Source of the DNA: a virus
Taxonomy: Duplodnaviria > Heunggongvirae > Uroviricota > Caudoviricetes
Strand: one strand, 5' to 3'
IMG/VR virus record: IMGVR_UViG_2693429748_000014
DNA length: 12,787 nucleotides
Shown: positions 1-12,787 of the stretch, in pieces
How the letters are laid out: each line of letters begins with the position of its first letter
Position numbering within the stretch: position 1 is the first letter of the stretch
Program-made: the position numbers and the translations under genes
The notes under the pieces: model-generated
Databases searched by the model: none
Seen by the model: only the letters and a program-made list of their open reading frames with translations
What the model was told of the DNA's origin: nothing

Positions 1-72
1 TAAGTGATACTGGTTGTCTGGAGATTCAGGGGGCCAGTCTACCACCCCTGATGTCAGGTAGGAAAACACCAT
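1..72 (-). CDS. 5'-partial ORF of unknown function downstream of D; begins MVFSYLTSGVVDWPPESPDNQYHL and runs off the window start
   Basis: ATG at 72-70 on the minus strand, preceded by an AAGGA-containing stretch; open to the window edge. No recognisable similarity to Ogr, which would follow D in P2. Confidence 0.2.
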   Translation of the reverse strand, partial: MVFSYLTSGVVDWPPESPDNQYHL

Positions 73-190
73 ATGTTTCTGCTCTGTTTTTCCTTAGAAA
101 TAGGCATCCTTGCTGGAACAAAGCGAGCAGCTATATTGACTCTATGTTGTGAGTGTGTTGATCCGTTCTGAGTTAATACATTTAAGTTGC

Positions 191-1300
191 TCACTCTGTT
201 TCTGCTATCCATTCCGGGATTTTTGCCTCAAGCTCAAGCTGCGTGGTAAAGCCGCTGTTATCAATGGTGTGCTCGGCTTTTGCAATAATCCAGTCCTGAT
301 TATCAATCTCGCTTTTAAATCCTGTTACCGTGCCATGCATTTCGGGGTAGAGTTCTGCACGTCCATGCGCCAGTGTGATGGAGAATGATGCGGCTCCGCG
401 TTGTAGCTGCTGCCACTTTGCCGCCGCTGCACGTCTTGCTGCCTGCTCGTTCTGATAAGTTTTGCGTAACACAAACACGTTGCCTTCCGCACCTTCCATA
501 TAGTCGCCTTCCCGGCTGCTGCTTTTCTCCTTTTTTGGTTTTGACGGTTTGCGGCGTTTCACGCTGACTTTTTTCTTTTTCCCGTAATTAAGATCAAGCC
601 AGTAAGCGCGTACCCCCGTATACGCTTCGCGGTCAGCAATGCGGAACTGATGGCGATCGCCGCTGCTGCGTGTGATGGCGAACGAGGGCAACGGCTGGCC
701 CTGTGCGTTCACGCCACCACCGGGCATGATGAATAACAGATTACCGCTTTTTACCGTGGTGATTGCGCCCAGCATTTCCGCCATGCGCGTAAGGAAGGAC
801 ATGTCGCTTTCTTCGGTCTGGTCGGCGTGGTCGATTTCGATATCCATCAGCATTTCGCTGATTTGCGGTTTCAGACCATACCGATGAGCGATGGCGGATA
901 CCACACGCTCAACGGTCACATCATGCCAGGACACCTCACGTTTAACGTTAAATTCAGCCCGAAAATCTGCGCTTCTGGCTGAAACAGTCAGCCTGTCCGG
1001 CGGTCCTTCGTGAGCGATTTCATCAACAATGTAAGTGCCTTTTTCTGTCAGCGGTTCTCCCTTCCAGCCAATGAGAACCGTCAGGCGCGCGCCCCGTGGC
1101 GGTAGCTGCAACTGACCATCCGCATCATCCAGCGTGATGGTGAGCTGGTCCGCCTCAAATCCCCGGTTGTCGGTCAGTGACAGGCTCATCAGGCGCTCTG
1201 CCACGCCTGACAGCGTTTTACCCTCCGCGAGAATATCAAAATCCGGCATTTTCACGGGGTCTGTGCCCTGACTGAGCAATTGCATGGTGGTGTCGGTCAT
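191..1300 (-). CDS. P2 gpD-like tail protein (late control gene D family)
   Basis: Translation recalls P2 gpD motifs (LSLTDNRGFEADQL, SARSADFR, SWHD, FLTR, GDRHQF, REGDYMEG, NSGFTT, lysine-rich KKKKVSVKRRKPSKPKKEK linker). Start placed at the internal ATG at 1300 (MTDTTMQLL) because of the GGGAGGGAG Shine-Dalgarno just upstream; the ORF-track start at 1432 is probably too long. Confidence 0.85.
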   Translation of the reverse strand: MTDTTMQLLSQGTDPVKMPDFDILAEGKTLSGVAERLMSLSLTDNRGFEADQLTITLDDADGQLQLPPRGARLTVLIGWKGEPLTEKGTYIVDEIAHEGPPDRLTVSARSADFRAEFNVKREVSWHDVTVERVVSAIAHRYGLKPQISEMLMDIEIDHADQTEESDMSFLTRMAEMLGAITTVKSGNLLFIMPGGGVNAQGQPLPSFAITRSSGDRHQFRIADREAYTGVRAYWLDLNYGKKKKVSVKRRKPSKPKKEKSSSREGDYMEGAEGNVFVLRKTYQNEQAARRAAAAKWQQLQRGAASFSITLAHGRAELYPEMHGTVTGFKSEIDNQDWIIAKAEHTIDNSGFTTQLELEAKIPEWIAETE

Positions 1301-1457
1301 CTGCTCCCTCCCTGTGTGGCATGGTCGCATGTGCGTGCGGAGGGGGTTACTGCTTTTTGTTGTCGCCGTGGCGGGAGAATGGCGCAGGGGTGAGATTACG
1401 CGCGTGGTGGGTGATGATTGTTGCCGAATCATTTAACGGATACAAGGGGTTGAAGCT

Positions 1458-2642
1458 ATGAGTGAAACTCGTTTTCATGGTGCCCGTGTTACGGAAAATA
1501 CCGACCTGGTAACAGCGATTAACGATGTTGATTCCAGCGTTATCGGTATCGTGGCAACGGCGGATGATGCGGACGCGGAGCTGTTCCCGCTGAACAAGCC
1601 CACACTGCTGCCCCGCGTCAATGACGTGCTGGGAAAATGCGGAACAACGGGGACGCTTTATCGTGCGCTTAAGGCCATCGCAGACCAGGTGAGCACAAAG
1701 GTGATCGTCGTTCGCGTGGCTGAACACAAAGAAGAAGACGGAAAAACGCAGGATCAACTGGTTATCGGTGGTTCTGAATCTGACGGCAGCTATACGGGGA
1801 TGTATGCGCTGCTTGTTGCAGAGCAGGATGAAAGCATCGGATACCGTCCGCGTATTCTGGCCGCGCCGGAGCTGGACACGGAGGCGGTGACAAAATCCCT
1901 GTGCGTGATTGCGGGTAAACTGCGCGCGTTTGTGTATGCCTCATGTCATGACTGTAACACGATGGCTGAGGCAATTACCTACCGCCAGAAATTCAACGAA
2001 CGTGAGGTGATGCTCTTATGGCCGGACTTCATCGCCTACAACCCGAAAAGTGGCAAAAACGAAACGTTCCCCGCGCCTGCCTATGCGTGCGGCCTTCGTG
2101 CGTACATTGACCATGAGCAGGGCTGGCACAAATCGCTGTCCAACGTTCCGGTTAAAAATGTGCTGGGGATGTCCAGGCATGTGTTCTGGTCGTTGCAGGC
2201 CGAAGACAGTGATGCCAACAGCCTCAACAACAAAGAAATCACGACCATTATTCGTCGCAACGGGTTCCGCTTCTGGGGCAACCGCACACCGGAAACGAAC
2301 GCCTACATCTTTGAGGTGTATACCCGAACCGCACAGGTGCTGGCTGATTCAATTGCGGAAGCGCAGTTTGAAACCATCGACAGTCCACTGACGCCTGCGA
2401 ACGTGAAGGATGTTATCGGTGCCATCAGGGCAAAACTGGATTCACTGGTTACTGCCGGGAAACTGATTGGGGCGTCGTGCTGGTATGACGTGGTGGATAA
2501 CGGCACCACGAATTTACGTCAGGGGCGCGTGCGTATTCGCTACAAATATACGCCTGTTCCCCCGCTGGAAGACATGGAGCTTTACCAGTCGTTTACTGAT
2601 GAATTCTTTGGTCCCGCATTTGCGGTGCTGGGAGGTGCCTGA
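1458..2642 (+). CDS. contractile tail sheath protein (P2 gpFI family)
   Basis: 394 aa; motifs LRAFVYAS, WPDF, DHEQGWHKSLSNV, RRNGFRFWGNRT, YTRTAQV and YKYTPVPPLE match tail sheath proteins as I recall them; AAGGGG RBS; stop overlaps next start (ATGA). Confidence 0.9.
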   Translation: MSETRFHGARVTENTDLVTAINDVDSSVIGIVATADDADAELFPLNKPTLLPRVNDVLGKCGTTGTLYRALKAIADQVSTKVIVVRVAEHKEEDGKTQDQLVIGGSESDGSYTGMYALLVAEQDESIGYRPRILAAPELDTEAVTKSLCVIAGKLRAFVYASCHDCNTMAEAITYRQKFNEREVMLLWPDFIAYNPKSGKNETFPAPAYACGLRAYIDHEQGWHKSLSNVPVKNVLGMSRHVFWSLQAEDSDANSLNNKEITTIIRRNGFRFWGNRTPETNAYIFEVYTRTAQVLADSIAEAQFETIDSPLTPANVKDVIGAIRAKLDSLVTAGKLIGASCWYDVVDNGTTNLRQGRVRIRYKYTPVPPLEDMELYQSFTDEFFGPAFAVLGGA

Positions 2643-3154
2643 TGGCTGTACCAAAACATCTTCGCTTTTTTACGCTGTTTGTGGATGGTGAAAACGAAGT
2701 GGGTAAGGTGACGTCCGTCACTCTGCCTAAGCTGACGCGCAAAACCGACAGCTACCGGGGTGGTGGCATGATGGGAGCGGTAAGTATTGATCTCGGCCTG
2801 GATGACTCCGCGCTTGATGCGAGCTTTGTCATGGGGGGCGCAGTTCGTGAGCTGTTCCTTAAGTATGGCGGCACGATTGACGGTACGCTGCTGCGTTTTG
2901 CGGGTGAATACTACACCGACGCTGAAAGCGACCTGTATGAAGTCGAAATGCGCGGACGTGTGACGGAAATTGATATGGGGGAAGCCAAACAGGGCGAAGC
3001 CACATCACACACTTACGCCATTAAAAACACCTACTACAAGCTGAGTGTTAACGATCGCCCGTTGTGGGAGATTGACCTGCTGAACTTCATTTACCGGAAG
3101 GACGGCAGGGACATTGTGCCCGATCGCATCCGTTCCGCGCTCGGGCTTGGCTGA
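2642..3154 (+). CDS. tail tube protein (P2 gpFII family)
   Basis: 170 aa immediately after the sheath gene; translationally coupled (ATGA overlap) with GGGAGG RBS; size and position typical of the FI-FII pair. Confidence 0.85.
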   Translation: MAVPKHLRFFTLFVDGENEVGKVTSVTLPKLTRKTDSYRGGGMMGAVSIDLGLDDSALDASFVMGGAVRELFLKYGGTIDGTLLRFAGEYYTDAESDLYEVEMRGRVTEIDMGEAKQGEATSHTYAIKNTYYKLSVNDRPLWEIDLLNFIYRKDGRDIVPDRIRSALGLG

Positions 3155-3208
3155 TAAGTAATATGCAGGCGGCGCAGTGCGTCGCCTCTGACTGAAAGGA
3201 GTTTCCTG

Positions 3209-3574
3209 ATGAAAGAGACGAAAAACATCGATACCGAAAACACGGTCGTTGCTGACACTGTGAAAGAAACCAGTGAGCGTGGCGTAAAACTTACCCAACC
3301 AATTGAGCGAGGCGGCGAAAAAATCACGTATGTGGAGATCACCGGGGCTATTGAGCAGGCTGGATCTCTGCGAGATTTGTCGCTGTCTGATGTGCTGAAT
3401 TTGAAAGCGGAATCCATGTTTACGCTGCTGTCACGCGTGACATCACCGCGACTGGATGAAGTGACGATCAAAAAAATGGCATCCCGTGACTTTATTCAGT
3501 TATGTGTGGTTGCCGTAAATTTTTTGAGCGGTGCGGACTCTGGCGAGAAGAACGAACAGGCGACGGAAGCCTGA
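3209..3574 (+). CDS. tail assembly chaperone (P2 gpE-like), zero-frame product
   Basis: 121-aa ORF between tube and tape measure genes; AGGAG RBS 8 nt upstream; contains the TTTTTTG slippery heptamer at 3520-3526. Confidence 0.75.
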   Translation: MKETKNIDTENTVVADTVKETSERGVKLTQPIERGGEKITYVEITGAIEQAGSLRDLSLSDVLNLKAESMFTLLSRVTSPRLDEVTIKKMASRDFIQLCVVAVNFLSGADSGEKNEQATEA

Positions 3575-3738
3575 TCACGGTTGTGTGCTTTGAGCACATA
3601 GAAGACTTTGTGGCGGATATTGCCGCCATTTTTAACTGGTCGCCCGCCGAAATCTTCATGATGACGCCCGGCGAAGTGGTTAGCTGGCGTGAGCGGGCGG
3701 CACTTCGCAGCGGGAATGCAGACAATGAAGACTCTTGA
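3209..3738 (+). CDS. gpE+E'-like frameshift fusion product (-1 slip at T TTT TTG, 3520-3526)
   Basis: Slippery heptamer lies in-frame as N-F-L. The -1 frame is open from there to the TGA at 3736-3738 (ORF-track protein 3502..3738) and overlaps the tape measure start, as in the P2 E/E' and lambda G/GT arrangement. Confidence 0.6.
3520..3526 (+). promoter_or_regulatory. programmed -1 ribosomal frameshift slippery site TTTTTTG
   Basis: Heptamer seen directly in the sequence with the correct zero-frame phasing (aaT TTT TTG); same heptamer is used in P2 E/E' by recollection. Confidence 0.6.
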
Positions 3739-6532
3739 TATCCGGGTCGCTTTCAGCGCCGTTGACAGGCTGACCCGGCCTGCCGAAAACGCCCGCCGCC
3801 TGATGGGGCAGTTTGGTGACTCCATCCAGCGAACGCAGGGGGCGATCAAAAATCTCGAGCGTCAGGCGCGTTCATTTGAGCGCGCCCGTGACGCTGTCAG
3901 TAAAGCGGATGCGGGCATCGTGAAAGCACGACGCCAGCTTAACGCCCTTAATCAGTTACAACGCACGGGTACAGTGCTCAGCGAAAAACAACAAAAGCTG
4001 ATGCAGCAGTTAAGCACCCGGCTTGAACGCCTGAATGAATCGCGCACACGGGAAATTCAGAAAATGCGGGAACTTGGCGGAGAGCTGAAACGCCACGGCA
4101 TTTCCCTGACAGGCAGCGATAACACCATCCAGCAGGCCATCAGACGCACCGGACAATACAACAACCAGCTTGAACGCGAACGGCGGGCGCTTGCGCGTGT
4201 AACGCAGGCGCGTGAGCGGTATTCACGCGCGCAGGAAACAGCGGGAAAACTGAAAACAGGTGGTGCGCTGGCAACAGGTGCGGCGGCAGCGGGCGGCTAT
4301 GCTGCCGGGCGTTTTTTGCAGCCCGCTATCGGGTTCGGGAAAGAGATGTCCCGTGTTCAGGCACTGACGCGAATCGATAAAAACAGCCCGCAGTTTAAGG
4401 CGCTGCGTGAGCAGGCGTTAAAACTTGGCTCTGAAACGCAGTTCACCGCAGGCGATGCCGCCAGTGGACAGGCATTTCTTGCAATGGCTGGTTTCACACC
4501 GCAGGCCATTCAGGCTGCGCTTCCCGGCGTGCTGAGCATGGCAACGGCTGGCGGTATGGACCTCGGCGAGACGGCGGATATTGGTTCCAATATCCTGACG
4601 CAGTTCGGCCTCTCTGCTGACCAGATGGACCGGGTCGGTGACACACTTACCGCAGCGTTTACCCGTACCAACACTGACCTTCGCGCACTGGGCGAAACCA
4701 TGAAATATGCAGGTCCGGTGGCGGGTAAGCTGGGAATATCGCTGGAGCAGGCCGCAGCGATGGCGGGCGTGCTGGCGAAGATGGGTATCAGGGGGAGTGA
4801 TGCAGGTACAGCGTTGCGTAAAAGCCTGGCCAATCTGTCATCACCGCCAAAGGCAGCGGCAGAAGCACTGAAAGAGCTGGGGGTGTCAGTTGCTGACGCC
4901 AAAGGCAAAATGCGCCCGATGGAGAATGTGCTGGCCGATCTCTATAAAGCCACCCGCAAATACGGGGAGGTTGACCGGGTATCGTTCTTTAAGGACATTG
5001 CCGGAGAAGAGGCTTTCACATCATTTATGGGCCTCGTTGATGCGGCAGGTGACGGCTTCTTAGCCAAACTGAGAAAAGAACTTGAAGGCGCGCGCGGTGA
5101 GGCAGAACGCACGGCAAAGGTTATGGCCAATAACCTTGATGGCAACCTGAAATCACTCGGCAGTGCATGGGAAGGTCTGCGTATTCGCATCAGTGATCTG
5201 GTTGACGGTCCGCTGCGTTCTGTCACGCAGTGGCTCACGCGGGTTGTCTCAAAGGTGACGGCGCTGGCGCAGGCCCACCCGGCACTGACGCGCCAGTTAC
5301 TGATAGCGGGAGGCGCACTGCTGGCGACAACAGCAACGGTTGGTTCGTTGTCTCTGGTTATTGGGGTGCTTCACGGGAAGCTGGCTACGTTGCGTCTCGG
5401 TTTTTCTCTCCTGACCGAATCAATGAATGTTGTCAGGGTTCTGCCTGCATTATGGGGAATGGTGACGGGTTCCGTTTCTTTACTTGGTGGCGCTATCGGG
5501 GCGCTGTTCAGTCCGGTTAGTCTTATCGTGGCTGCGCTTGCCGGAGCTGCCGTTCTTATCTGGAAATACTGGGATCCCATCAGGGCATTTTTTGCCGGGG
5601 TGTTCAGCGGGATTATGGAAAGGCTGACCCCGTTGCGCGAAACCTTTGAACGGTTTGGCCCTGTTTTTGATGTCGTGCGCGATGGGATTATTCAGGTCTT
5701 TAACTGGTTTAAATCGCTGCTGTCACCGATGGAGTCCAGCAAGGAAACGCTGGATAAATGTGCCAGTGCTGGCGAGATATTCGGTAACGTTCTTGGCGGT
5801 GCGTTACAACTTGTTCTGACACCTGCAAAAATGCTACTGGATACGCTGGCGTGGATACTTGAAAAACTTGGCGTCCTTCCGGATGAAGCGGAAAGGGCGC
5901 GCAAGAAAATCGAAGACGCACAGCGTGCGGCCATTCTTCAGGACAAGGTTGCCTTGCTTCAGGGGGACCTGGCGAAAATCAATCCGCCGAAGCCTGTGGA
6001 AAATGGCAATGGCACCGGAGGTGATAAACCCAAAGACAACAAACCGCTCACAGACAGCAATACCGGGACGCTACGCAGACTCAGCAAAATTGCTGATAAC
6101 ACAGGTAAGCTGGTTGATGAGACGAAAAAACGCATTGGCCCCGGCGATATTGTCTTTAAGAACCTGCCCCGCGCACTTGCTGTTCGTGGGGAGTGGCAGG
6201 AGCGGAAGATTGCGCAGGTCAGTAAGCCTGCCCCCGCAATTAATATCACACCCGTGGTCCCGGCTCCGCTGCCTCCGGCGCTGGTCCCTGTTGTTGCGGC
6301 CAGCTCCCGCCCGGTGGCGGAGGCCATACGCTCTCCAGTGGCATCAGTTCCTGTAACTTCCCGTAACCGGGAGCCTGTTGCCTCCGGATTTGGTGGTGAA
6401 ATTCATGTTCATCTGCATAACGTTGTTACGCAGAATCCCCGCGAACTGGCGAAACTGGTCGGTGAAATGGTCAGGGCAGAAATGGAACGGCGCGCCCGTG
6501 CCGGGCGTGGCAGTTTTTACGATAAAGATTGA
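3725..6532 (+). CDS. tail tape measure protein (P2 gpT-like)
   Basis: Very long ORF (GTG 3689 to TGA 6532) after the chaperone pair; coiled-coil-like N-terminal region, central hydrophobic Gly/Ala/Leu-rich block, Pro/Ala-rich C-terminus. Start uncertain: ATG 3725 (GGGA about 9 nt upstream) preferred, with ATG 3716 and GTG 3689 as alternatives. Confidence 0.8.
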   Translation: MKTLDIRVAFSAVDRLTRPAENARRLMGQFGDSIQRTQGAIKNLERQARSFERARDAVSKADAGIVKARRQLNALNQLQRTGTVLSEKQQKLMQQLSTRLERLNESRTREIQKMRELGGELKRHGISLTGSDNTIQQAIRRTGQYNNQLERERRALARVTQARERYSRAQETAGKLKTGGALATGAAAAGGYAAGRFLQPAIGFGKEMSRVQALTRIDKNSPQFKALREQALKLGSETQFTAGDAASGQAFLAMAGFTPQAIQAALPGVLSMATAGGMDLGETADIGSNILTQFGLSADQMDRVGDTLTAAFTRTNTDLRALGETMKYAGPVAGKLGISLEQAAAMAGVLAKMGIRGSDAGTALRKSLANLSSPPKAAAEALKELGVSVADAKGKMRPMENVLADLYKATRKYGEVDRVSFFKDIAGEEAFTSFMGLVDAAGDGFLAKLRKELEGARGEAERTAKVMANNLDGNLKSLGSAWEGLRIRISDLVDGPLRSVTQWLTRVVSKVTALAQAHPALTRQLLIAGGALLATTATVGSLSLVIGVLHGKLATLRLGFSLLTESMNVVRVLPALWGMVTGSVSLLGGAIGALFSPVSLIVAALAGAAVLIWKYWDPIRAFFAGVFSGIMERLTPLRETFERFGPVFDVVRDGIIQVFNWFKSLLSPMESSKETLDKCASAGEIFGNVLGGALQLVLTPAKMLLDTLAWILEKLGVLPDEAERARKKIEDAQRAAILQDKVALLQGDLAKINPPKPVENGNGTGGDKPKDNKPLTDSNTGTLRRLSKIADNTGKLVDETKKRIGPGDIVFKNLPRALAVRGEWQERKIAQVSKPAPAINITPVVPAPLPPALVPVVAASSRPVAEAIRSPVASVPVTSRNREPVASGFGGEIHVHLHNVVTQNPRELAKLVGEMVRAEMERRARAGRGSFYDKD

Positions 6533-6538
6533 GGAGTC

Positions 6539-7033
6539 ATGGCCATGATGATGATCTACGGCATGTTTGTTTTTGAGCTGCGTACATTGCCGCATCAGCA
6601 GTTACAGCAAAACAAAAGCTGGCGGCATGTGAAAAATGAACGCGTTAACCGTTCGGCAAGCTGGCAGTATATCGGTGCAGGTGATGAGCGCATCGTTCTT
6701 TCTGGTGTGCTTTATCCTGAAATTACAGGTGGCGAAGTGTCGCTGTCGCTGCTGACCACGCAGGCGTATACAGGACGACCCTGGCCTCTGATTGATGGCG
6801 TCGGGCAGATTTACGGCATGTATGTCCTGACCGAAACGAATACGACCCGCTCCGAGTTTGATCGCTACGGTAAGGCGAAAAAGATAGAATTTTCACTGAC
6901 TCTTGAACGCTGTGATGAGGATTTGCGGGAGCGCCTGCAATCCTCATCGTTCAGCGATATGCTGTCCGGCTTCAAAGATAAGGTAACATCATCCCTTAAC
7001 AGCGCGGCCAGTTCAGTTAAAGGGTTGTTCTGA
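6539..7033 (+). CDS. tail protein gpU-like (tail sheath-terminating / tail completion protein)
   Basis: 164-aa ORF directly after the tape measure gene with GGAG RBS; size and position match P2 gpU. Confidence 0.8.
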   Translation: MAMMMIYGMFVFELRTLPHQQLQQNKSWRHVKNERVNRSASWQYIGAGDERIVLSGVLYPEITGGEVSLSLLTTQAYTGRPWPLIDGVGQIYGMYVLTETNTTRSEFDRYGKAKKIEFSLTLERCDEDLRERLQSSSFSDMLSGFKDKVTSSLNSAASSVKGLF

Positions 7034-7044
7034 TTTAACACAAA

Positions 7045-7079
7045 AACCGCTAATGGTCAGATTAGCGGTTATTTTGTTT
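7045..7079. terminator. bidirectional intrinsic terminator between convergent U and invertase genes
   Basis: Perfect 10-bp inverted repeat AACCGCTAAT / ATTAGCGGTT with 6-nt loop, A-run upstream and ATTTTGTTT downstream. Confidence 0.6.
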
Positions 7080-7656
7080 CCTGACTCTTCTCTATTGTTC
7101 CGATTGATTCTCCTGCGGGGTGGTAACGATAAATCGTCGATATACCAATGCCGTAAATTATTGCCAGTTGTTTTCTGTCGTGCCCGTTTTTGATCAGCCT
7201 TGCTATTTGCTCATGCTGTTCTTTTGTCAGCTTCGGTCGACGTCCGCCTGTGCGCCCCCGTGCGCGTGCTGCCGCCAGTCCGGCCAGTGTACGTTCAACA
7301 ATTAATTCACGTTCCATTTCAGCCAGGGCACCCATCACGTGGAAGAAAAAACGCCCCATTGGAGAAGATGTATCTATGCTGTCGGTCAGACTGCGAAAAT
7401 TAATTCCTCGCTCCCGTAGTTCCCCGACGAGAGAAATCAGATGTTTCATGCTTCGCCCGAGGCGATCCAGTTTCCAGACAACCAGCGTGTCACCTTTTTG
7501 AAGGCGCTTTAAAGCGCGTTTTAATCCCGGTCGGTCTGTCTTTGTCCCGCTTAATTTATCTTCAAATATTTGTTCACATCCTGCACAAACAAGAGCGTTT
7601 CGTTGCAGGTCTGTATTCTGGTCATTTGTTGATACCCTTACATAGCCAATCAGCAC
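7069..7656 (-). CDS. serine site-specific DNA invertase (Gin/Pin/Cin/Hin family)
   Basis: N-terminus VLIGYVRVSTNDQNTDLQRNAL with catalytic-serine motif, WKLDRLGRS, GRFFFHVMGALAEMERELIVERT and a C-terminal helix-turn-helix, all hallmark invertase sequences. Start set at GTG 7656 (GGGAGA RBS) rather than the TTG at 7674 used by the ORF track. Confidence 0.9.
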   Translation of the reverse strand: MLIGYVRVSTNDQNTDLQRNALVCAGCEQIFEDKLSGTKTDRPGLKRALKRLQKGDTLVVWKLDRLGRSMKHLISLVGELRERGINFRSLTDSIDTSSPMGRFFFHVMGALAEMERELIVERTLAGLAAARARGRTGGRRPKLTKEQHEQIARLIKNGHDRKQLAIIYGIGISTIYRYHPAGESIGTIEKSQETK

Positions 7657-7710
7657 GCTGAATCTCCCGTCCAAAAGCGCAAATCATGCCATGCAGGCCG
7701 GAAACGGCCA

Positions 7711-7736
7711 TTATCTAAAACCTCGGTTTACAGGAA
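7711..7736. promoter_or_regulatory. 26-bp invertase crossover site (gix/cix/hix-like): TTATCTAAAACCTCGGTTTACAGGAA
   Basis: Imperfect palindrome with AAACC-N2-GGTTT core; matches the Mu gix sequence as I recall it at 25 of 26 positions. Lies between the invertase start and the fibre cassette. Confidence 0.7.
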
Positions 7737-7760
7737 ACGGTAAACAAGGCTGGTAACGCC

Positions 7761-8747
7761 GTGCAAAAAAATGGCGATACGTTGTCCGGTGGACTTACTT
7801 TTGAAAACGACTCAATCCTTGCCTGGATTCGAAATACTGACTGGGCAAAGATTGGGTTTAAAAATAATTCGGATGCAGACACCGATTCCTACATGTGGTT
7901 TGAAACAGGCAACAACGGCAATGAATATTTCAAATGGAGACACCGCATCATTGGCACCCGGCCTAAAGACCTGATGAATCTTAAATGGAATGCTTTGTCT
8001 GTTCTTGTTGAAGCCCTTTTCAGCAGTGAAGTGAAAATATCGACAGTCAATGCACTGAGGATATTTAATTCATCTTTTGGTGCCATTTTTCGTCGTTCTG
8101 AAGAATGCCTGCATATCATCCCTACACGAGAGAATGAAGGGGAAAATGGTAATATAGGGCCACTACGCCCCTTTACGCTTAATCTCAGAACTGGCCGGAT
8201 AAGCATGGGGCATGGTCTTGATGTTACAGGGGATATATTTGCAAACCGTTTTGCAATTAACAGTAGTACCGGCATGTGGATTCATATGCGTGACCAGAAT
8301 GTTATTTTGGGACGTAATGCGGTATCCACTGATGGTGCTCAGGCTTTGCTCCGTCAGGACCATGCCGACCGCAAATTTATGATTGGCGGTCTGGGAAATA
8401 AGCAATTTGGCATCTACATGATTAATAACTCAAGGACAGCCAATGGCACCGATGGTCAGGCGTACATGGATAATAACGGGAACTGGCTTTGCGGCTCGCA
8501 AGTTATTCCCGGCAACTATGGCAATTTTGATTCCAGATATGTGAAAGATGTTCGACTTGGTTCACAGCAATATTATGGAGTGAACAACTGGCAAACATGG
8601 AATTTTCAGTGCCCGTCAGGCTATGTACTGACGGGGATTAACGTACAGGATACCGGAAAAAACTCTGCCGATAATATTGCAGGCGTTCATTACAGGCCAG
8701 TGCAAAAGTATATAAATGGCACTTGGTATAATGTGGCGAGTATTTAA
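7761..8747 (+). CDS. tail fibre C-terminal variable cassette (Sv-like); reading frame is actually open from 7719
   Basis: Contains the [10 protein letters not shown] fibre motif and ends [11 protein letters not shown]. The GTG start at 7761 is probably not a real initiation site: the frame is open back into the right half of the crossover site, as expected for a cassette fused to a constant N-terminal part by inversion. Confidence 0.75.
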
Positions 8748-8748
8748 T

Positions 8749-9276
8749 ATGATGCACTTAAAGAACATAAAAGCAGGTAATGCTAAAACAGTGGAGCAGT
8801 ATGAGTTAACAAAGAAGCACGGAGTCATCTGGCTTTACTCTGAGGACGGAAAAAACTGGTATGAGGAAGTGAAGAACTTTCAGCCAGACACAATAAAGAT
8901 TGTTTACGATGCAAATAATATTATTGTCGCCATCACCAAAGATGCCTCCACGCTTAACCCTGAAGGTTATAGCGTCGTTGAGGTTCCTGATATTACAGCT
9001 AATCGTCGTGCTGATGATTCCGGTAAGTGGATGTTTAAGGACGGAGCTGTGGTTAAACGGATTTATACGGCTGACGAACAGCAACAACAGGCCGAATCAC
9101 AAAAGGCCGCATTGCTTTCCGAAGCTGAATCAGTCATCCAGCCGCTGGAACGCGCTGTCAGGCTGAATATGGCGACGGACGAGGAACGCACACGACTGGA
9201 AGCATGGGAACGCTACAGTGTTCTGGTCAGCCGTGTGGATACGGCAAAGCCAGAATGGCCACAAAAGCCTGAGTAA
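8749..9276 (+). CDS. tail fibre assembly chaperone (Tfa / Mu U / P2 G family)
   Basis: Starts [10 protein letters not shown] one nucleotide after the cassette stop; paralogous to the convergent ORF 9305..9838; conserved [19 protein letters not shown] and KWMFKDG motifs. The longer ORF-track start at 8716 overlaps the fibre gene and is less likely. Confidence 0.8.
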
Positions 9277-9281
9277 AAATT

Positions 9282-9301
9282 AAGGCCCGATATCGGGCCT
9301 T
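9282..9301. terminator. palindromic hairpin / bidirectional terminator between convergent tfa genes
   Basis: AAGGCCCGATATCGGGCCTT is a perfect 20-bp palindrome with A/T-rich flanks on both sides. Confidence 0.5.
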
Positions 9302-9304
9302 GTT

Positions 9305-9838
9305 TCATTCTGGTTGTTCGGGAAACGTTACTGGCAGGCTGGAGGTGTCTGTGGATTCGACCTTCTGCGCATAGAGCATCCACTCGGTTAATTTTTGTTT
9401 ATTCTCGTCGGAAATAATGCCCAGCCGTAGCTGTGAGTCCCATAGCTGGGTTTTATCCCTGACGAGCTGTAGCAGGCTTTGCTTTTCATTTTCCGCTTGT
9501 TGCCTCTGCTCTTCCCCGGTATAAGTTCGCTTTATCACTACGCCATCTTTGAACATCCATTTACCTGAAATATCAGCCCGGCGATTTGCTGTAATATCAG
9601 GAACCTCAACGACGCTTGCGCCTTCCGGATTAATTGCTGAAACATCCTTTTCAATACAAATAATAACGCCGTTGTGGTCATAGACCATTTTCAACGTATC
9701 AGGCTGAAAGTTCTTTTGTTCCTCATACCAGTTTTTCCCATCCTCTGTATAAAGCCATTTGATGTTAAATTGTTTCGTTAGCTGGTATTGCTCTTTTGTT
9801 TCAGGATTACCAGCAGAAATGTTTTTTAAGTGCATCAT
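9305..9838 (-). CDS. tail fibre assembly chaperone, second paralogue (Tfa')
   Basis: Starts MMHLKNISAG; N-terminal two-thirds closely similar to the plus-strand chaperone while the C-terminus diverges, as expected for cognate chaperones of alternative fibres. Confidence 0.8.
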   Translation of the reverse strand: MMHLKNISAGNPETKEQYQLTKQFNIKWLYTEDGKNWYEEQKNFQPDTLKMVYDHNGVIICIEKDVSAINPEGASVVEVPDITANRRADISGKWMFKDGVVIKRTYTGEEQRQQAENEKQSLLQLVRDKTQLWDSQLRLGIISDENKQKLTEWMLYAQKVESTDTSSLPVTFPEQPE

Positions 9839-9840
9839 CG

Positions 9841-10197
9841 TTAAATACTCCCCGCGTTATACCACGTCCCATTAATGCAATACTGAATTGGCCTTGCCTG
9901 AGTTGTATCAATTAGTTCATCTCTGTTTGAGTTAACGGAACCGGTAACAACATAACCTGACCTGTCAGACCATCCGGGACCATTCCATGTCTGAACAGAT
10001 AACAGACCACCAAGGCGAATACCTGTAATAAACCTTGAGTTACATTCTGCCTGCGTATATGCACCAACATCTCCCGCAGAGGGTTTGCGGGTTGTGGTGT
10101 AAAACTCTGAGGTGTACTGGCAATAGCGGACACTACCATTTGTTCTTTTTTTAAGCAGCCATCTGATGATATTTTTCCCTGAAGGCTGAAGGCTATT
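9841..10197 (-). pseudogene. truncated alternative tail-fibre C-terminal cassette (Sv' remnant), about 118 codons with no start codon
   Basis: Hand translation of the minus strand gives ...RLGGLLSVQTWNGPGWSDRSGYVVTGSVNSNRDELIDTTQARPIQYCINGTWYNAGSI*, homologous to the C-terminus of the plus cassette (SGYVLTG ... [11 protein letters not shown]). Stop TAA at 9843-9841, 2 nt before the Tfa' start. Frame closed upstream by TGA at 10200-10198, where GC content drops. Confidence 0.55.
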
Positions 10198-10250
10198 TCA
10201 ATATCGCTATGCTGCGGCAGCATTTAACCCCTTGTAATTCATCGCCATAA

Positions 10251-10279
10251 TTGATTTAATTCACAAATAAAACTATAAT
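10251..10279 (+). promoter_or_regulatory. predicted sigma70 promoter TTGATT-N17-TATAAT for the methyltransferase gene
   Basis: Hexamers at 10251-10256 and 10274-10279 with 17-bp spacer in an AT-rich region just upstream of the ORF. The predicted transcription start would leave a very short leader. Confidence 0.35.
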
Positions 10280-10291
10280 ATGGTGAAATTA

Positions 10292-10948
10292 ATGAAAAAA
10301 AACACAGATGATGGGGCTAAAATTTACACACCACTTACCCTAAAGCTTTATGACTGGTGGGTTTTGGGAGTATCAAATCGGCTTGCATGGGGATGTCCTA
10401 CAAAGGAACACCTTCTTCCACACTTTCTGGAACATTTAGGTAACAACCATCTGGATATTGGTGTTGGAACTGGGTTTTACCTTACTCACGTACCTGAGAG
10501 TAGTCTGATATCTTTAATGGATTTGAACGAAGCTAGCCTGAACGCGGCATCTACAAGGGCTGGGGAATCAAAAATTAAACATAAAATTAGCCATGATGTT
10601 TTTGAACCTTATCCCGCGGCGTTACATGGTCAATTTGATTCCATTTCCATGTTTTACCTTCTTCACTGCCTGCCTGGAAATATATCTACAAAAAGCTGTG
10701 TAATACGCAATGCGGCGCAGGCCTTAACTGATGATGGAACTCTATACGGAGCCACAATTCTTGGCGATGGAGTTGTGCACAATAGCTTCGGTCAAAAACT
10801 GATGCGCATTTACAATCAGAAAGGCATCTTTTCAAACACAAAAGATTCCGAAGAAGGCTTAACACATATACTCTCAGAGCATTTCGAGAATGTTAAAACC
10901 AGGGTTCAAGGTACTGTAGTAATGTTTTCCGCTTCAGGGAAAAAATAG
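10292..10948 (+). CDS. class I SAM-dependent methyltransferase (cargo / moron gene)
   Basis: Motif I-like LDIGVGTGFY, acidic residue after the second strand (LMDLNEASL) and later FDSISMFYLLHCLPG / LTDDGTLYGATILGDG motifs, consistent with the Rossmann methyltransferase fold. Clearly lower GC than the flanks. Start at ATG 10292 (GGTGA RBS) preferred; ATG 10280 possible. Confidence 0.65.
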   Translation: MKKNTDDGAKIYTPLTLKLYDWWVLGVSNRLAWGCPTKEHLLPHFLEHLGNNHLDIGVGTGFYLTHVPESSLISLMDLNEASLNAASTRAGESKIKHKISHDVFEPYPAALHGQFDSISMFYLLHCLPGNISTKSCVIRNAAQALTDDGTLYGATILGDGVVHNSFGQKLMRIYNQKGIFSNTKDSEEGLTHILSEHFENVKTRVQGTVVMFSASGKK

Positions 10949-10955
10949 CATCCAA

Positions 10956-10988
10956 CCGCAGCACGTTCTTGCTTAAGACGTGCTGCGG
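10956..10988. other. stem-loop after the methyltransferase gene (CCGCAGCACGT ... ACGTGCTGCGG)
   Basis: 11-bp perfect inverted repeat 8 nt after the stop codon; no T-run follows on the plus strand, so terminator function is uncertain. Confidence 0.3.
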
Positions 10989-11146
10989 CATAATCCCAAT
11001 GATTACTCCCTGACAGGGTTCGTAGGCCACTCAATATCAGGTGCAGTTGATGTATCAACACGGTTCAGCAACACCCGATACTTTTTCTAGGCTTCCACCA
11101 CCAGCACGACAAGATGCCGCATACAGTGACCCAGTCAGTCCAGTTT

Positions 11147-11329
11147 TCAGACAACCAGTGCGTCACCTTTTTGAAGGCGCTTTAAAGCACGTTTTAATCC
11201 AGGTCGGCCTGTCCTTGTTCCGCTTAATTTATCTTCAAATATTTGTTCATATCCTGCACAAACAAGAGCGTTTCGTTGCAGGTCTGTATTCTGGTCATTT
11301 GTTGATACCCTTACATAGCCAATCAGCAC
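11147..11329 (-). pseudogene. 5' fragment of a second Gin/Pin-family invertase gene (about 60 N-terminal codons), truncated
   Basis: Encodes VLIGYVRVSTNDQNTDLQRNALVCAGYEQIFEDKLSGTRTGRPGLKRALKRLQKGDALVV then a stop; 4 amino-acid differences from the intact copy. Homology to the intact gene ends near 11139. Confidence 0.7.
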
Positions 11330-11383
11330 GCTGAATCTCCCGTCCAAAAGCGCAAATCATGCCATGCAGGCCGGAAACGGCCA

Positions 11384-11409
11384 TTATCTAAAACCTCGGT
11401 TTACAGGAA
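11384..11409. promoter_or_regulatory. second copy of the 26-bp gix-like crossover site, in direct orientation to the first
   Basis: Identical sequence TTATCTAAAACCTCGGTTTACAGGAA, 3673 bp downstream of the first copy. Confidence 0.65.
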
Positions 11410-11433
11410 ACGGTAAACAAGGCTGGTAACGCC

Positions 11434-12420
11434 GTGCAAAAAAATGGCGATACGTTGTCCGGTGGACTTACTTTTGAAAACGACTCAATCCTTGCCTGGA
11501 TTCGAAATACTGACTGGGCAAAGATTGGGTTTAAAAATAATTCGGATGCAGACACCGATTCCTACATGTGGTTTGAAACAGGCAACAACGGCAATGAATA
11601 TTTCAAATGGAGACACCGCATCATTGGCACCCGGCCTAAAGACCTGATGAATCTTAAATGGAATGCTTTGTCTGTTCTTGTTGAAGCCCTTTTCAGCAGT
11701 GAAGTGAAAATATCGACAGTCAATGCACTGAGGATATTTAATTCATCTTTTGGTGCCATTTTTCGTCGTTCTGAAGAATGCCTGCATATCATCCCTACAC
11801 GAGAGAATGAAGGGGAAAATGGTAATATAGGGCCACTACGCCCCTTTACGCTTAATCTCAGAACTGGCCGGATAAGCATGGGGCATGGTCTTGATGTTAC
11901 AGGGGATATATTTGCAAACCGTTTTGCAATTAACAGTAGTACCGGCATGTGGATTCATATGCGTGACCAGAATGTTATTTTGGGACGTAATGCGGTATCC
12001 ACTGATGGTGCTCAGGCTTTGCTCCGTCAGGACCATGCCGACCGCAAATTTATGATTGGCGGTCTGGGAAATAAGCAATTTGGCATCTACATGATTAATA
12101 ACTCAAGGACAGCCAATGGCACCGATGGTCAGGCGTACATGGATAATAACGGGAACTGGCTTTGCGGCTCGCAAGTTATTCCCGGCAACTATGGCAATTT
12201 TGATTCCAGATATGTGAAAGATGTTCGACTTGGTTCACAGCAATATTATGGAGTGAACAACTGGCAAACATGGAATTTTCAGTGCCCGTCAGGCTATGTA
12301 CTGACGGGGATTAACGTACAGGATACCGGAAAAAACTCTGCCGATAATATTGCAGGCGTTCATTACAGGCCAGTGCAAAAGTATATAAATGGCACTTGGT
12401 ATAATGTGGCGAGTATTTAA
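11434..12420 (+). CDS. tail fibre C-terminal variable cassette, second copy (identical to 7761..8747)
   Basis: ORF-track translation is identical to the first copy. Confidence 0.7.
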
Positions 12421-12421
12421 T

Positions 12422-12787
12422 ATGATGCACTTAAAGAACATAAAAGCAGGTAATGCTAAAACAGTGGAGCAGTATGAGTTAACAAAGAAGCACGGAGTCA
12501 TCTGGCTTTACTCTGAGGACGGAAAAAACTGGTATGAGGAAGTGAAGAACTTTCAGCCAGACACAATAAAGATTGTTTACGATGCAAATAATATTATTGT
12601 CGCCATCACCAAAGATGCCTCCACGCTTAACCCTGAAGGTTATAGCGTCGTTGAGGTTCCTGATATTACAGCTAATCGTCGTGCTGATGATTCCGGTAAG
12701 TGGATGTTTAAGGACGGAGCTGTGGTTAAACGGATTTATACGGCTGACGAACAGCAACAACAGGCCGAATCACAAAAGGCCGCATTG
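12422..12787 (+). CDS. tail fibre assembly chaperone, second copy, 3'-truncated by the window end
   Basis: Same [10 protein letters not shown] start and sequence as 8749..9276 at offset +3673; runs off the window. Confidence 0.7.

Follow-up and report, generated by a model that had tools for sequence, protein, structure and literature searches.

Gin-type tail-fibre switches, their complementation in trans and the IS-driven decay of prophages in Shigella are textbook knowledge, and one more example has little biological weight. The closest described systems are the G segment of phage Mu, with its invertase Gin, and that of the Shigella relative SfMu, in which the invertase, a 26-bp crossover site, the variable fibre part Sv, the chaperone gene tfa (U), tfa' (U'), Sv', an inverted site and the constant part follow one another, the same order as in the element described here. 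Wild-type invertases (the Gin/Hin invertasome) are not known to recombine directly repeated sites productively. The enhancer of such systems works many kilobases away from the sites (PMC3798978). The invertases of cryptic prophages of E. coli K-12 act in trans on the segment of another prophage, as documented for PinQ of Qin, which inverts the P segment of e14 (PMC12529663).

The window, that is, the whole stretch of 12,787 nucleotides analysed here, had been described in the initial annotation as carrying an inversion switch in the order invertase (minus strand), crossover site, fibre cassette (plus), tfa (plus), tfa' (minus) and truncated fibre cassette (minus), with the architecture of the Mu G, P1 C and e14 P segments. 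This order was borne out by the open reading frames, the Pfam matches and the match to the site; the architecture was also correctly recognised. We consider it very probable that the feature belongs to a P2-like Shigella/E. coli prophage and is a tail-fibre inversion switch of the ordinary Mu type, cut off at its far end by an IS600 end and followed by the border of the switch of a second, lambdoid prophage, the joins most likely being assembly products. The portion present is the left two-thirds of a standard Gin/G-segment-type host-range switch. It is a switch of an already known kind; the P2-like prophage bearing it occurs in Shigella sonnei, S. boydii and E. coli, and is intact and annotated in complete genomes.

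Invertase, candidate enhancer and left crossover site

A full-length Gin-type serine DNA invertase of 195 aa with a GTG start is encoded on the minus strand at 7069–7656, with the catalytic Ser in MLIGYVRVSTNDQ. The protein is a small serine recombinase with an N-terminal catalytic domain containing the active-site Ser and a C-terminal HTH, and matches Pfam Resolvase (1.3e-50) and HTH_7. Comparison with the Mu Gin structures 4M6F and 3UJ3 gave E values of about 1e-100 (3.7e-101 over the full length for 4M6F); the protein is nearly identical to 4M6F over residues 1–135 and has the motif YVRVSTNDQ. On these sequence grounds it is a Gin ortholog.

Alignment found the first ~185 nt of the gene to be virtually identical to Mu gin, synonymous sites included. 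This 5′ end contains a candidate Fis enhancer (sis) at 7549–7611, with two putative G-N13-C Fis sites that are separated by 48 bp and lie at distances of 119 and 167 bp from the crossover centre; the Hin enhancer has the same size and position (PMC3798978). In switches of this family a Fis-dependent enhancer acting in cis normally occupies this part of the invertase gene, at about 100 bp from a site. The left 26-bp crossover site, the gix-like sequence TTATCTAAAACCTCGGTTTACAGGAA, lies at 7711–7736 on the plus strand with its core TC at 7723–7724. No chance matches to this site are expected (0), and the breakpoints of inversions between sister genomes coincide with it.

The complete cassette and its intact relatives

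The complete variable fibre cassette, Sv, occupies 7719–8747 on the plus strand in the silent orientation, followed by tfa, the gene for its tail-fibre assembly chaperone (8749–9276, plus strand; 175 aa; Caudo_TAP, 2.5e-37). The 328-aa ORF starting with GTG (7761–8747) is a mechanical one, and the open Sv frame already begins at 7719, within the crossover site. The H protein of S. boydii CP026836 (L014; species from PMC12817139) has 678 aa, of which residues 337–678 are the Sv sequence, joined there to the constant part. The H proteins of the relatives (656 or 678 aa) share a common part ending in ...VIEY, followed by LGLQETVN encoded by the site, which places the expected junction between constant and variable parts after ...VIEY.

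In a promoter scan, the stretch 7657–7760 preceding the GTG at 7761 contained no sigma-70-like promoter, in agreement with the claim that the plus-strand cassette is promoterless. This bears on the idea that the 328-aa cassette is expressed alone from this GTG with a function for the host, such as the blocking of a phage receptor, an effect reported for StfE2, a chimera from e14. Many genomes contain the ORF in intact form, and inversion reportedly allowed a fibre fragment of a cryptic prophage to block the adsorption of T2 (PMC12529663). However, besides the missing promoter, the frame opens back into the site and simply continues H in frame once the segment is flipped, and we give the idea almost no credence; the ORF is intact because it was recently used as an alternate fibre tip.

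From 1 to 10110, the sequence matches a P2-like prophage that is intact in S. sonnei ATCC 29930 with 100% identity (L021/L038; species from PMC9430107). There the second cassette continues into a 656-aa H gene holding the inverted partner site TTATCGAATACCTCGGTTTACAGGAA, 3.1 kb from the left site (9951–9976 on the plus strand and 13026–13051 on the minus strand of L038). Relatives identical over 1–10110 thus carry what is missing here: the remaining Sv', the inverted site and a 336-codon constant part within the 656-aa H gene.

The segment was found in both orientations among the relatives. In the P2-like switch the 3.1-kb segment is inverted in S. boydii CP026836 (L014) and in L019 relative to L038; the lambdoid segment discussed below is flipped between L023 and L031, two otherwise 99.99%-identical genomes, with just a 60-codon invertase stub adjacent. 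In these comparisons (L038 versus L014/L019, and L023 versus L031) identity is 99.8% inside the inversions, the flanks are 99.95–99.99% identical and colinear, and the breakpoints fall on the 26-bp sites. Therefore, both are ordinary working switches. In the intact P2-like element, the invertase, with Fis at the enhancer in the 5′ end of its own gene, would flip the 3.1-kb segment between the two inverted 26-bp sites; each flip would join the 336-codon constant part of H in frame to Sv (with tfa) or to Sv' (with tfa').

The absence of a constant part and of a partner site from the far end, reported in the initial annotation, stands in part. A site search found no inverted partner site anywhere in the window, and there is no constant 5′ fibre part in it to which either alternative, each with its own chaperone, could be joined in frame through the site. 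An identical copy in direct orientation at 11384–11409 had, however, been missed. The window thus holds the site at 7711–7736 and a direct copy, whereas L038 has two inverted sites. Since they are present in this identical prophage, the family assignment holds for the element, and the copy in the window is incomplete as written.

The truncated cassette and the IS600 end

The alternative chaperone gene, tfa', is located at 9305–9838 on the minus strand (177 aa; Caudo_TAP, 7.1e-37) and is the partner of Sv', of which only the last 88 codons and the stop remain (9841–10107, minus strand). This remnant corresponds to residues 569–656 of H in S. sonnei ATCC 29930 (L038), where the protein is 656 aa long, and the homology to intact prophages stops at 10110. 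The next 81 nt (10108–10188), starting TGAGGTGTACTGGCAATAGCGG, are the terminal inverted-repeat end of IS600 (IS3 family), which begins with TG, on the side adjoining the 3′ end of the transposase gene. They are 100% identical to the ends of full-length 1264-bp IS600 copies (L006, L014, L017, L034–36), and the same sequence is annotated as IS600 in E. coli genomes. Just these 81 nt are in the window, out of an element that would comprise both ends, a transposase and a target-site duplication.

The cassette is indeed truncated and ends at 9841, but the "about 118 codons" given for it comprise 88 codons of fibre, the remainder being the 81 nt of IS600 and a few bases. It therefore adjoins the IS600 end and does not abut the methyltransferase island directly, as had been stated. 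Because the IS600 end interrupts Sv', the switch is separated from the remaining Sv', from the partner site and from the constant part. As the sequence stands, the view that the switch is decayed was thus sound, Sv' being cut at 10107/10108.

The lambdoid island and the second crossover site

Another switch, independent of the first and belonging to a lambdoid prophage, begins at 10190 with its left border. The island at 10190–11146 (plus strand) shares 99.0–99.9% identity with Shigella loci and with the lambdoid prophage linked to trp/ompW in E. coli JJ1886. It contains the first 11 codons of a tfa fragment (10190–10223, minus strand), a moron encoding a class I SAM methyltransferase (10280–10948, plus strand; Pfam methyltransferase) with a promoter-like site found by promoter scan (10251–10279), and another tfa fragment (10954–11100, minus strand). 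An invertase stub of 60 codons follows at 11147–11329 on the minus strand, in which TGG has changed to TGA at codon 61; homology to the invertase ends 8 nt later. The stub retains the enhancer region (11222–11284), and 7443 blocks of the collection list exactly its 60-aa product.

Over 10190–11404, the identity to the lambdoid island of JJ1886 and many other genomes is 99–99.9%. In those genomes the island is followed by a cassette, tfa, tfa' and a 918–968-aa Stf gene with an inverted site, and the partner site proper to the lambdoid module normally lies about 3 kb further right, inside the Stf gene. For the present copy, this site and the constant part (Stf) would accordingly be expected rightward, past the end of the window. 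The lambdoid switch right of 10190 would be flippable solely in trans, for example by the full-length invertase encoded at 7069–7656.

The second crossover site (11384–11409, plus strand), identical to the first and in direct orientation relative to it, is part of a longer duplication. The plus-strand stretch 11251–12787 is a 100% identical second copy of 7578–9114, with the 5′ end of the invertase gene, the site, the whole of Sv (11392–12420) and the 5′ part of tfa, and runs off the window. At 11352, 11373 and 11379, it has alleles of the P2-type and not of the lambdoid type. Three lambdoid-specific alleles between the stub and the site have thus been replaced by P2-type ones, and the switch between the two types must therefore lie left of the core; it falls within a 101-nt stretch common to both modules (11251–11351), not at the crossover core. 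An origin of the joint between stub and Sv by invertase-mediated exchange between the two prophages was ruled out on account of these three alleles.

The initial annotation had offered, as an alternative to decay, that long-range or multi-site inversion gives access to a constant part located elsewhere. In its fullest form this would be a system like Min of p15B, in which the invertase uses the sites at 7711 and 11384 together with sites outside the window and shuffles cassettes between the P2-like and lambdoid fibre genes. In its favour, 3.7 kb contain a pair of identical sites, two copies of the enhancer region and an intact invertase gene; the trans-action of invertases of this family on other prophages (PMC12529663) and the range of the enhancer (PMC3798978) also speak for it. 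On the other hand, the two sites are directly oriented, the one at 11384 belonging to the separate lambdoid module. The change from lambdoid to P2-type sequence lies 45–145 bp left of the crossover core and was therefore not made by strand exchange at the site, and complete genomes with both prophages keep separate, canonical two-site switches (L020/L030, L024/L034). Where multiple inversion would involve at least three sites of mixed orientation and recombinant joints at the cores, we found two direct sites and a hybrid joint outside the core. We therefore regard such a system as highly improbable, and the proposal of long-range inversion gained no support. Apparent multi-cassette arrays in L007–L010 were also considered as a source for a Min-like system, and were rejected as scaffolds with single-N joins inside the island.

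Origin of the junctions

Judging from the sequence, short-read assembly or scaffolding across repeats is the most likely source of both the junction at 10188–10190 and the apparent duplication of the P2-type cassette behind the lambdoid stub. The base A at 10189, between the IS600 end and the island, is a probable scaffold join: native copies of the island have C or T at this position, and the sister scaffold L007 has a lone N exactly there. Many single-N joins are found within the island in L007–L010. The island also has alternative right-hand neighbours (ipaH in L003–L005) and is therefore multi-copy. The position of the change from lambdoid-type to P2-type sequence, inside the 101 nt that the two modules have in common, is a further indicator of an artefact. 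The IS600 piece, at 81–82 nt, has a length like that of a k-mer overhang; a real deletion could also leave an 81-nt IS fragment. The junction is missing from 5,426 complete E. coli genomes, the GTDB representative genomes, IMG/VR and the JGI metagenomes; an exact 45-mer spanning 10166–10210 had no match among genome, viral and metagenome contigs, and the 103-aa ORF spanning the junction was absent from the gene index. Only canonical arrangements came back when the methyltransferase, tfa', the 60-aa stub and the 328-aa cassette were looked up. As the window has no N and 10189 is an ordinary A, the sequence alone does not prove the join to be an artefact.

One k-mer size was considered for all three suspicious boundaries: the IS overhang would suggest a k of about 83, but just 34 nt of the stretch in common with the L006-type tfa precede the window end (equivalent to 9114), a length that does not fit this value and speaks against an artefact. 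An assembly join had been left out of account in the initial annotation as a source of the abrupt junction, for which the evidence favours one.

If the junction and the duplication are real, an IS600-associated deletion plus gene conversion would explain them. IS600 would have inserted into Sv', and a deletion from 81 nt inside the IS to the edge of the lambdoid island would have fused two prophage remnants, removing the partner site, the constant part and the baseplate and head genes of the P2-like prophage. Gene conversion through the homologies in the invertase 5′ end and the tfa 3′ part would then have copied the P2-type cassette behind the lambdoid stub, leaving the first switch dead and its invertase serving the second in trans. 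The window is indeed free of N; the same Sv'/IS600 junction occurs, with a full IS, in the independent assembly L006; and IS600 has struck the P2-like prophage repeatedly in complete Shigella genomes (L014, L017, L020, L034–36). Identity in the flanks extends over 101+ nt on the left side and 168 nt on the other, which is adequate for gene conversion, and orphan remnants of the form stub–Sv–tfa–tfa'–truncated Sv' exist in complete E. coli genomes, for example AR434. However, the deletion endpoint would by chance have to hit 10189, the sole base differing between island copies and the very position of the single-N join in the sister assembly, and the junction was found in no collection searched. 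A 100%-identical duplicate ending exactly at the window end also fits the re-use of an assembly path. Taken together, we consider a real rearrangement unlikely.

Cassettes of the same type with 95% identity follow invertase stubs in 132 complete E. coli genomes, and the arrangement is therefore natural in itself, which speaks against an artefact. A further speculation, likewise unlikely, is that the duplicate is real and that a conserved module, the invertase 5′ end with its enhancer together with the site, acts as a portable adapter. Through it, receptor-binding cassettes would pass by gene conversion from P2-like to lambdoid prophages, unrelated to each other but on one chromosome, and several switches lacking an invertase of their own would be driven in trans by a single surviving one. 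The 60-codon stub, which is found unchanged in thousands of assemblies, would be kept for the Fis enhancer it carries.

With joins made in assembly as the preferred reading, the locus serves mainly as a caution that an IS end and repeat-collapsed assembly joins can mimic an orphan switch with a nearby direct repeat of the site. Of minor interest is that the lambdoid switch still flips with just an invertase stub adjoining.

Comparison with known systems

The segment is about 3.1 kb here versus 3.06 kb in Mu, and the invertase and segment have 95.5% DNA identity to those of SfMu. The host element differs, being a P2-like prophage and not a Mu-like transposable phage, as does the constant part, which is P2 H-like with 336 codons versus about 170 codons for Sc of Mu. 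The far end is present in Mu and missing in the window. The C segment of P1 and P7, with the invertase Cin, has homologous cassettes and chaperones at 87–89% DNA identity, and the GenBank record of P1 gives 93% identity between its segment and the pinB locus of S. boydii. Tominaga et al. (1991, J Bacteriol) reportedly described the B segment of S. boydii as G-like with a different constant region; in this respect the pinB system would resemble the present prophage.

In E. coli K-12, the P segment of e14 with PinE, PinQ of Qin and PinR of Rac likewise represent modules for fibre inversion; they sit in decayed prophages and have cassettes that are orphaned or truncated. The methyltransferase moron beside the fibre module resembles ymfD of e14. 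Unlike the K-12 switches, the present invertase module comes from a P2-like element of which sister genomes contain complete copies, and its breakage is by IS600. Min of p15B resembles the locus in having more than two crossover sites near one invertase, but its six sites, of mixed orientation, belong to one fibre gene cluster, whereas here two direct sites belong to the modules of two prophages, with no evidence of exchange at the core.

Anatomy of the P2-type module

The first module of the window, a P2-type switch, opens with a serine recombinase (invertase) gene on the minus strand (7069-7656; 195 aa, GTG start) encoding Resolvase and HTH_7 domains. Crystal structures of Mu Gin match the protein with an E-value of about 1e-100, and the catalytic domain is near-identical. 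Next come a 26-bp crossover site, TTATCTAAAACCTCGGTTTACAGGAA (7711-7736); a fibre cassette (Sv) on the plus strand, whose mechanical "328-aa" ORF spans 7761-8747 in a frame open from 7719, inside the site; the Caudo_TAP genes tfa (plus strand, 8749-9276) and tfa' (minus strand, 9305-9838); and an 88-codon fibre remnant of the alternative cassette Sv' on the minus strand (9841-10107), equal to residues 569-656 of the 656-aa fibre protein H found in S. sonnei ATCC 29930. Each element of the layout proposed in the initial annotation, from invertase to cut cassette, was located in the window in the orientation claimed, and no constant fibre part was found in the window, as had been stated. The alternative cassette is indeed cut, but fibre sequence accounts for no more than 88 of the "about 118 codons" assigned to it; the last 81 nt of an IS600 element (10108-10188) make up the remainder of the open frame.

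A promoter scan found no sigma-70-like promoter ahead of the GTG ORF at 7761-8747; this ORF is simply a silent cassette. Terminator-like, bidirectional hairpins lie at 7045-7070, between gpU and the invertase gene, and at 9281-9302, between the convergent tfa genes.

Inversion in sister prophages

Window positions 183-10110 are colinear, at 95% identity, with a P2-like prophage that is intact in E. coli strain 755. The order there is D(-), FI-FII-E-T-U(+), invertase(-), cassette, tfa, tfa' and full-length fibre gene; this gene shares the minus strand with the baseplate and head genes. Window positions 1-10110 are 100% identical to the locus L015 and to the corresponding prophage (L021/L038) of CP026802.1, Shigella sonnei ATCC 29930 (PMC9430107). 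In L038 the partner site, TTATCGAATACCTCGGTTTACAGGAA, lies 3.1 kb away from the left one, inverted and inside the 656-aa H gene. The H protein starts with a constant part whose last residues are ...VIEY, continues with LGLQETVN, encoded by the site, and closes with the variable part. Other genomes with the same prophage, including S. boydii CP026836.1 (L014; PMC12817139), have a 678-aa H that joins the constant part to the "328-aa" cassette of the window. Direct comparison of the prophages revealed a clean 3.1-kb inversion with breakpoints on the sites, and identities of 99.8% inside and 99.95-99.99% in the flanks, which indicates that the P2-type module is a working host-range switch of the Mu G type in sister genomes.

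The FI-U tail operon runs opposite to gpD and ogr, with D on the minus strand and FI, FII, E, T and U on the plus strand at 191-7033. In phage P2, FI-FII-E-T-U-D form one co-directional operon. Every relative seen (E. coli 755, S. sonnei and S. boydii) had the divergent order, so this is a stable feature of the prophage lineage.

IS600 insertions

Homology to the intact prophage ends at 10107-10110, where the IS600 end TGAGGTGTACTGGCAATAGCGG starts. The insertion in Sv' is real, because another assembly (L006) has the same Sv'/IS600 junction at 100% identity with a full-length IS. IS600 has struck the same prophage at another place too: in several complete Shigella genomes (L017, L020, L034-36) a full copy interrupts the left crossover site at a point matching window 7718-7721, an independent way to lock the switch. 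In L034 and L036, tfa' contains a further IS600.

The lambdoid module

From 10190 the window is 99-99.9% identical to a lambdoid-prophage island widespread in E. coli and Shigella, whose neighbours are trpA and an ompW fragment in JJ1886 and in the majority of the other genomes inspected. The island runs tfa fragment, class I SAM methyltransferase, tfa fragment, invertase stub and crossover site; in JJ1886 and other genomes with the island, cassette, tfa and tfa' come next, and then a Stf gene of 918-968 aa in which the inverted partner site is located. In the window, the methyltransferase moron (10251-10948), with tfa fragments on either side, has its own promoter-like site (near-consensus TTGATT-17-TATAAT). 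The 60-codon invertase stub (11147-11329) ends by TGG to TGA at codon 61, and invertase homology stops 8 nt later. In some Shigella genomes (L003-L005) an ipaH (NEL) effector gene replaces the stub after the island; since the right-hand neighbours alternate in this way, the island is multi-copy and mobile between prophage ends.

The stretch 11251-12787 (1537 nt) is 100% identical to 7578-9114 and reaches the window end; ahead of it, about 110 nt at about 90% identity form the stub. It contains an identical crossover site (11384-11409) in direct orientation relative to 7711-7736. The initial annotation overlooked this copy, and its claim of "no partner crossover site" holds for an inverted copy, which is absent from the window. 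The two sites belong to two different switches. As the island is followed elsewhere by Stf with the partner site, the constant part for the second cassette copy would be expected just past 12787.

Origin of the joins

Position 10189 is C or T in all native islands, both variants being possible within one assembly, and a collapsed assembly node would start exactly at 10190. In the sister scaffold L007, a lone N stands exactly at the equivalent of 10189 and joins the island to an unrelated fibre fragment. Draft scaffolds of related strains (L007-L010) string together several copies of the methyltransferase island and of cassettes, in either orientation. We rejected these as real shufflon-like structures, since their look is due to single-N joins at repeat boundaries inside the island: L007 (9910, 12265, 12950), L008 (4483, 10656), L009 (9864, 15564) and L010 (1212, 4475, 6479, 10354).

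The equivalents of 11352, 11373 and 11379 are A, A and C in 22/22 lambdoid-type loci examined, and P2-type G, G and G in the window's second copy. The lambdoid-to-P2 changeover therefore falls within 11251-11351, 101 nt common to both modules and 45-145 bp left of the core; lying outside the core, it excludes strand exchange at the crossover site as its origin. Its position would fit either gene conversion or an assembler switching paths in a shared node.

The IS600 piece, at 81-82 nt, has a k-mer-overhang-like length. The junction did not turn up in GTDB representative genomes, IMG/VR, JGI metagenomes or 5,426 complete E. coli genomes, nor did the 103-aa ORF across it in the gene index. The join at 10189 is thus probably an assembly artefact. 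The remaining, much smaller probability goes to real joins made by IS600-associated deletion and gene conversion. Against an artefact speak the lack of any N in the window, a window end that does not fit the same k as the IS overhang, and same-type cassettes (95% identical) after stubs in 132 complete E. coli genomes.

Switching, expression and the candidate enhancer region

As written, the first module cannot invert because the inverted partner is missing; given the established topology of the Gin/Hin invertasome, wild-type invertases are not known to recombine directly repeated sites productively. In this form, neither cassette of the module can be expressed as fibre. If IS600 is a simple insertion at which the assembly broke, the switch would still flip, with only the Sv' state disrupted. 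In either case the intact invertase could serve the lambdoid switch in trans. L023 and L031, otherwise 99.99% identical genomes, differ by a flipped 3.1-kb lambdoid segment beside an invertase stub only, so this segment must, as far as these sequences tell, have been inverted in trans. Experimentally, PinQ acts in trans on the e14 P segment, between cryptic prophages (PMC12529663).

The first ~185 nt of the invertase gene, kept in the stub, are virtually identical in Mu gin, the full invertase and the stubs, synonymous sites included. When the 5' gene ends were compared (window 7470-7660 versus Mu, L045 4639-4830), about 110 consecutive nt, with the third codon positions among them, were invariant among Mu gin, window invertase and stubs, while the protein diverges in its 3' third. 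The 5' end is thus constrained at the DNA level, as an embedded enhancer would require. In invertase systems the Fis enhancer spans 65 bp, lies about 100 bp from a site and can act over many kb (PMC3798978). Here two G-N13-C motifs spaced 48 bp apart lie at the distance expected of such an enhancer, and we infer enhancer function for the conserved region. In the collection, 7443 blocks list exactly this 60-aa stub with its nonsense codon 61; its retained, Mu-gin-identical candidate enhancer may be the reason for its persistence.

Comparison with known systems

Taken as a whole, the module (invertase and segment) shares 95.5% identity with its counterpart in Shigella phage SfMu and 87-90% with those in Mu, D108, P1 and P7. 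The switch belongs to the Gin/Cin/Pin/Hin invertase family of fibre switches; G-gin of Mu/SfMu is the closest known system, here carried in a P2-like prophage. The B segment/pinB of S. boydii reportedly resembles it, and the GenBank record of P1 gives the P1 segment as 93% identical to that locus. Cryptic prophages commonly contain orphan and truncated modules, which are annotated as pseudogenes, as the complete genome of E. coli AR434 illustrates: near prfC/osmY (L043 7054-10016) an independent orphan module without constant part consists of a tfa fragment, a 64-codon invertase stub, cassette, tfa, tfa' and an alternative cassette cut to 474 nt. Nothing in the window's switch departs from these already known kinds.
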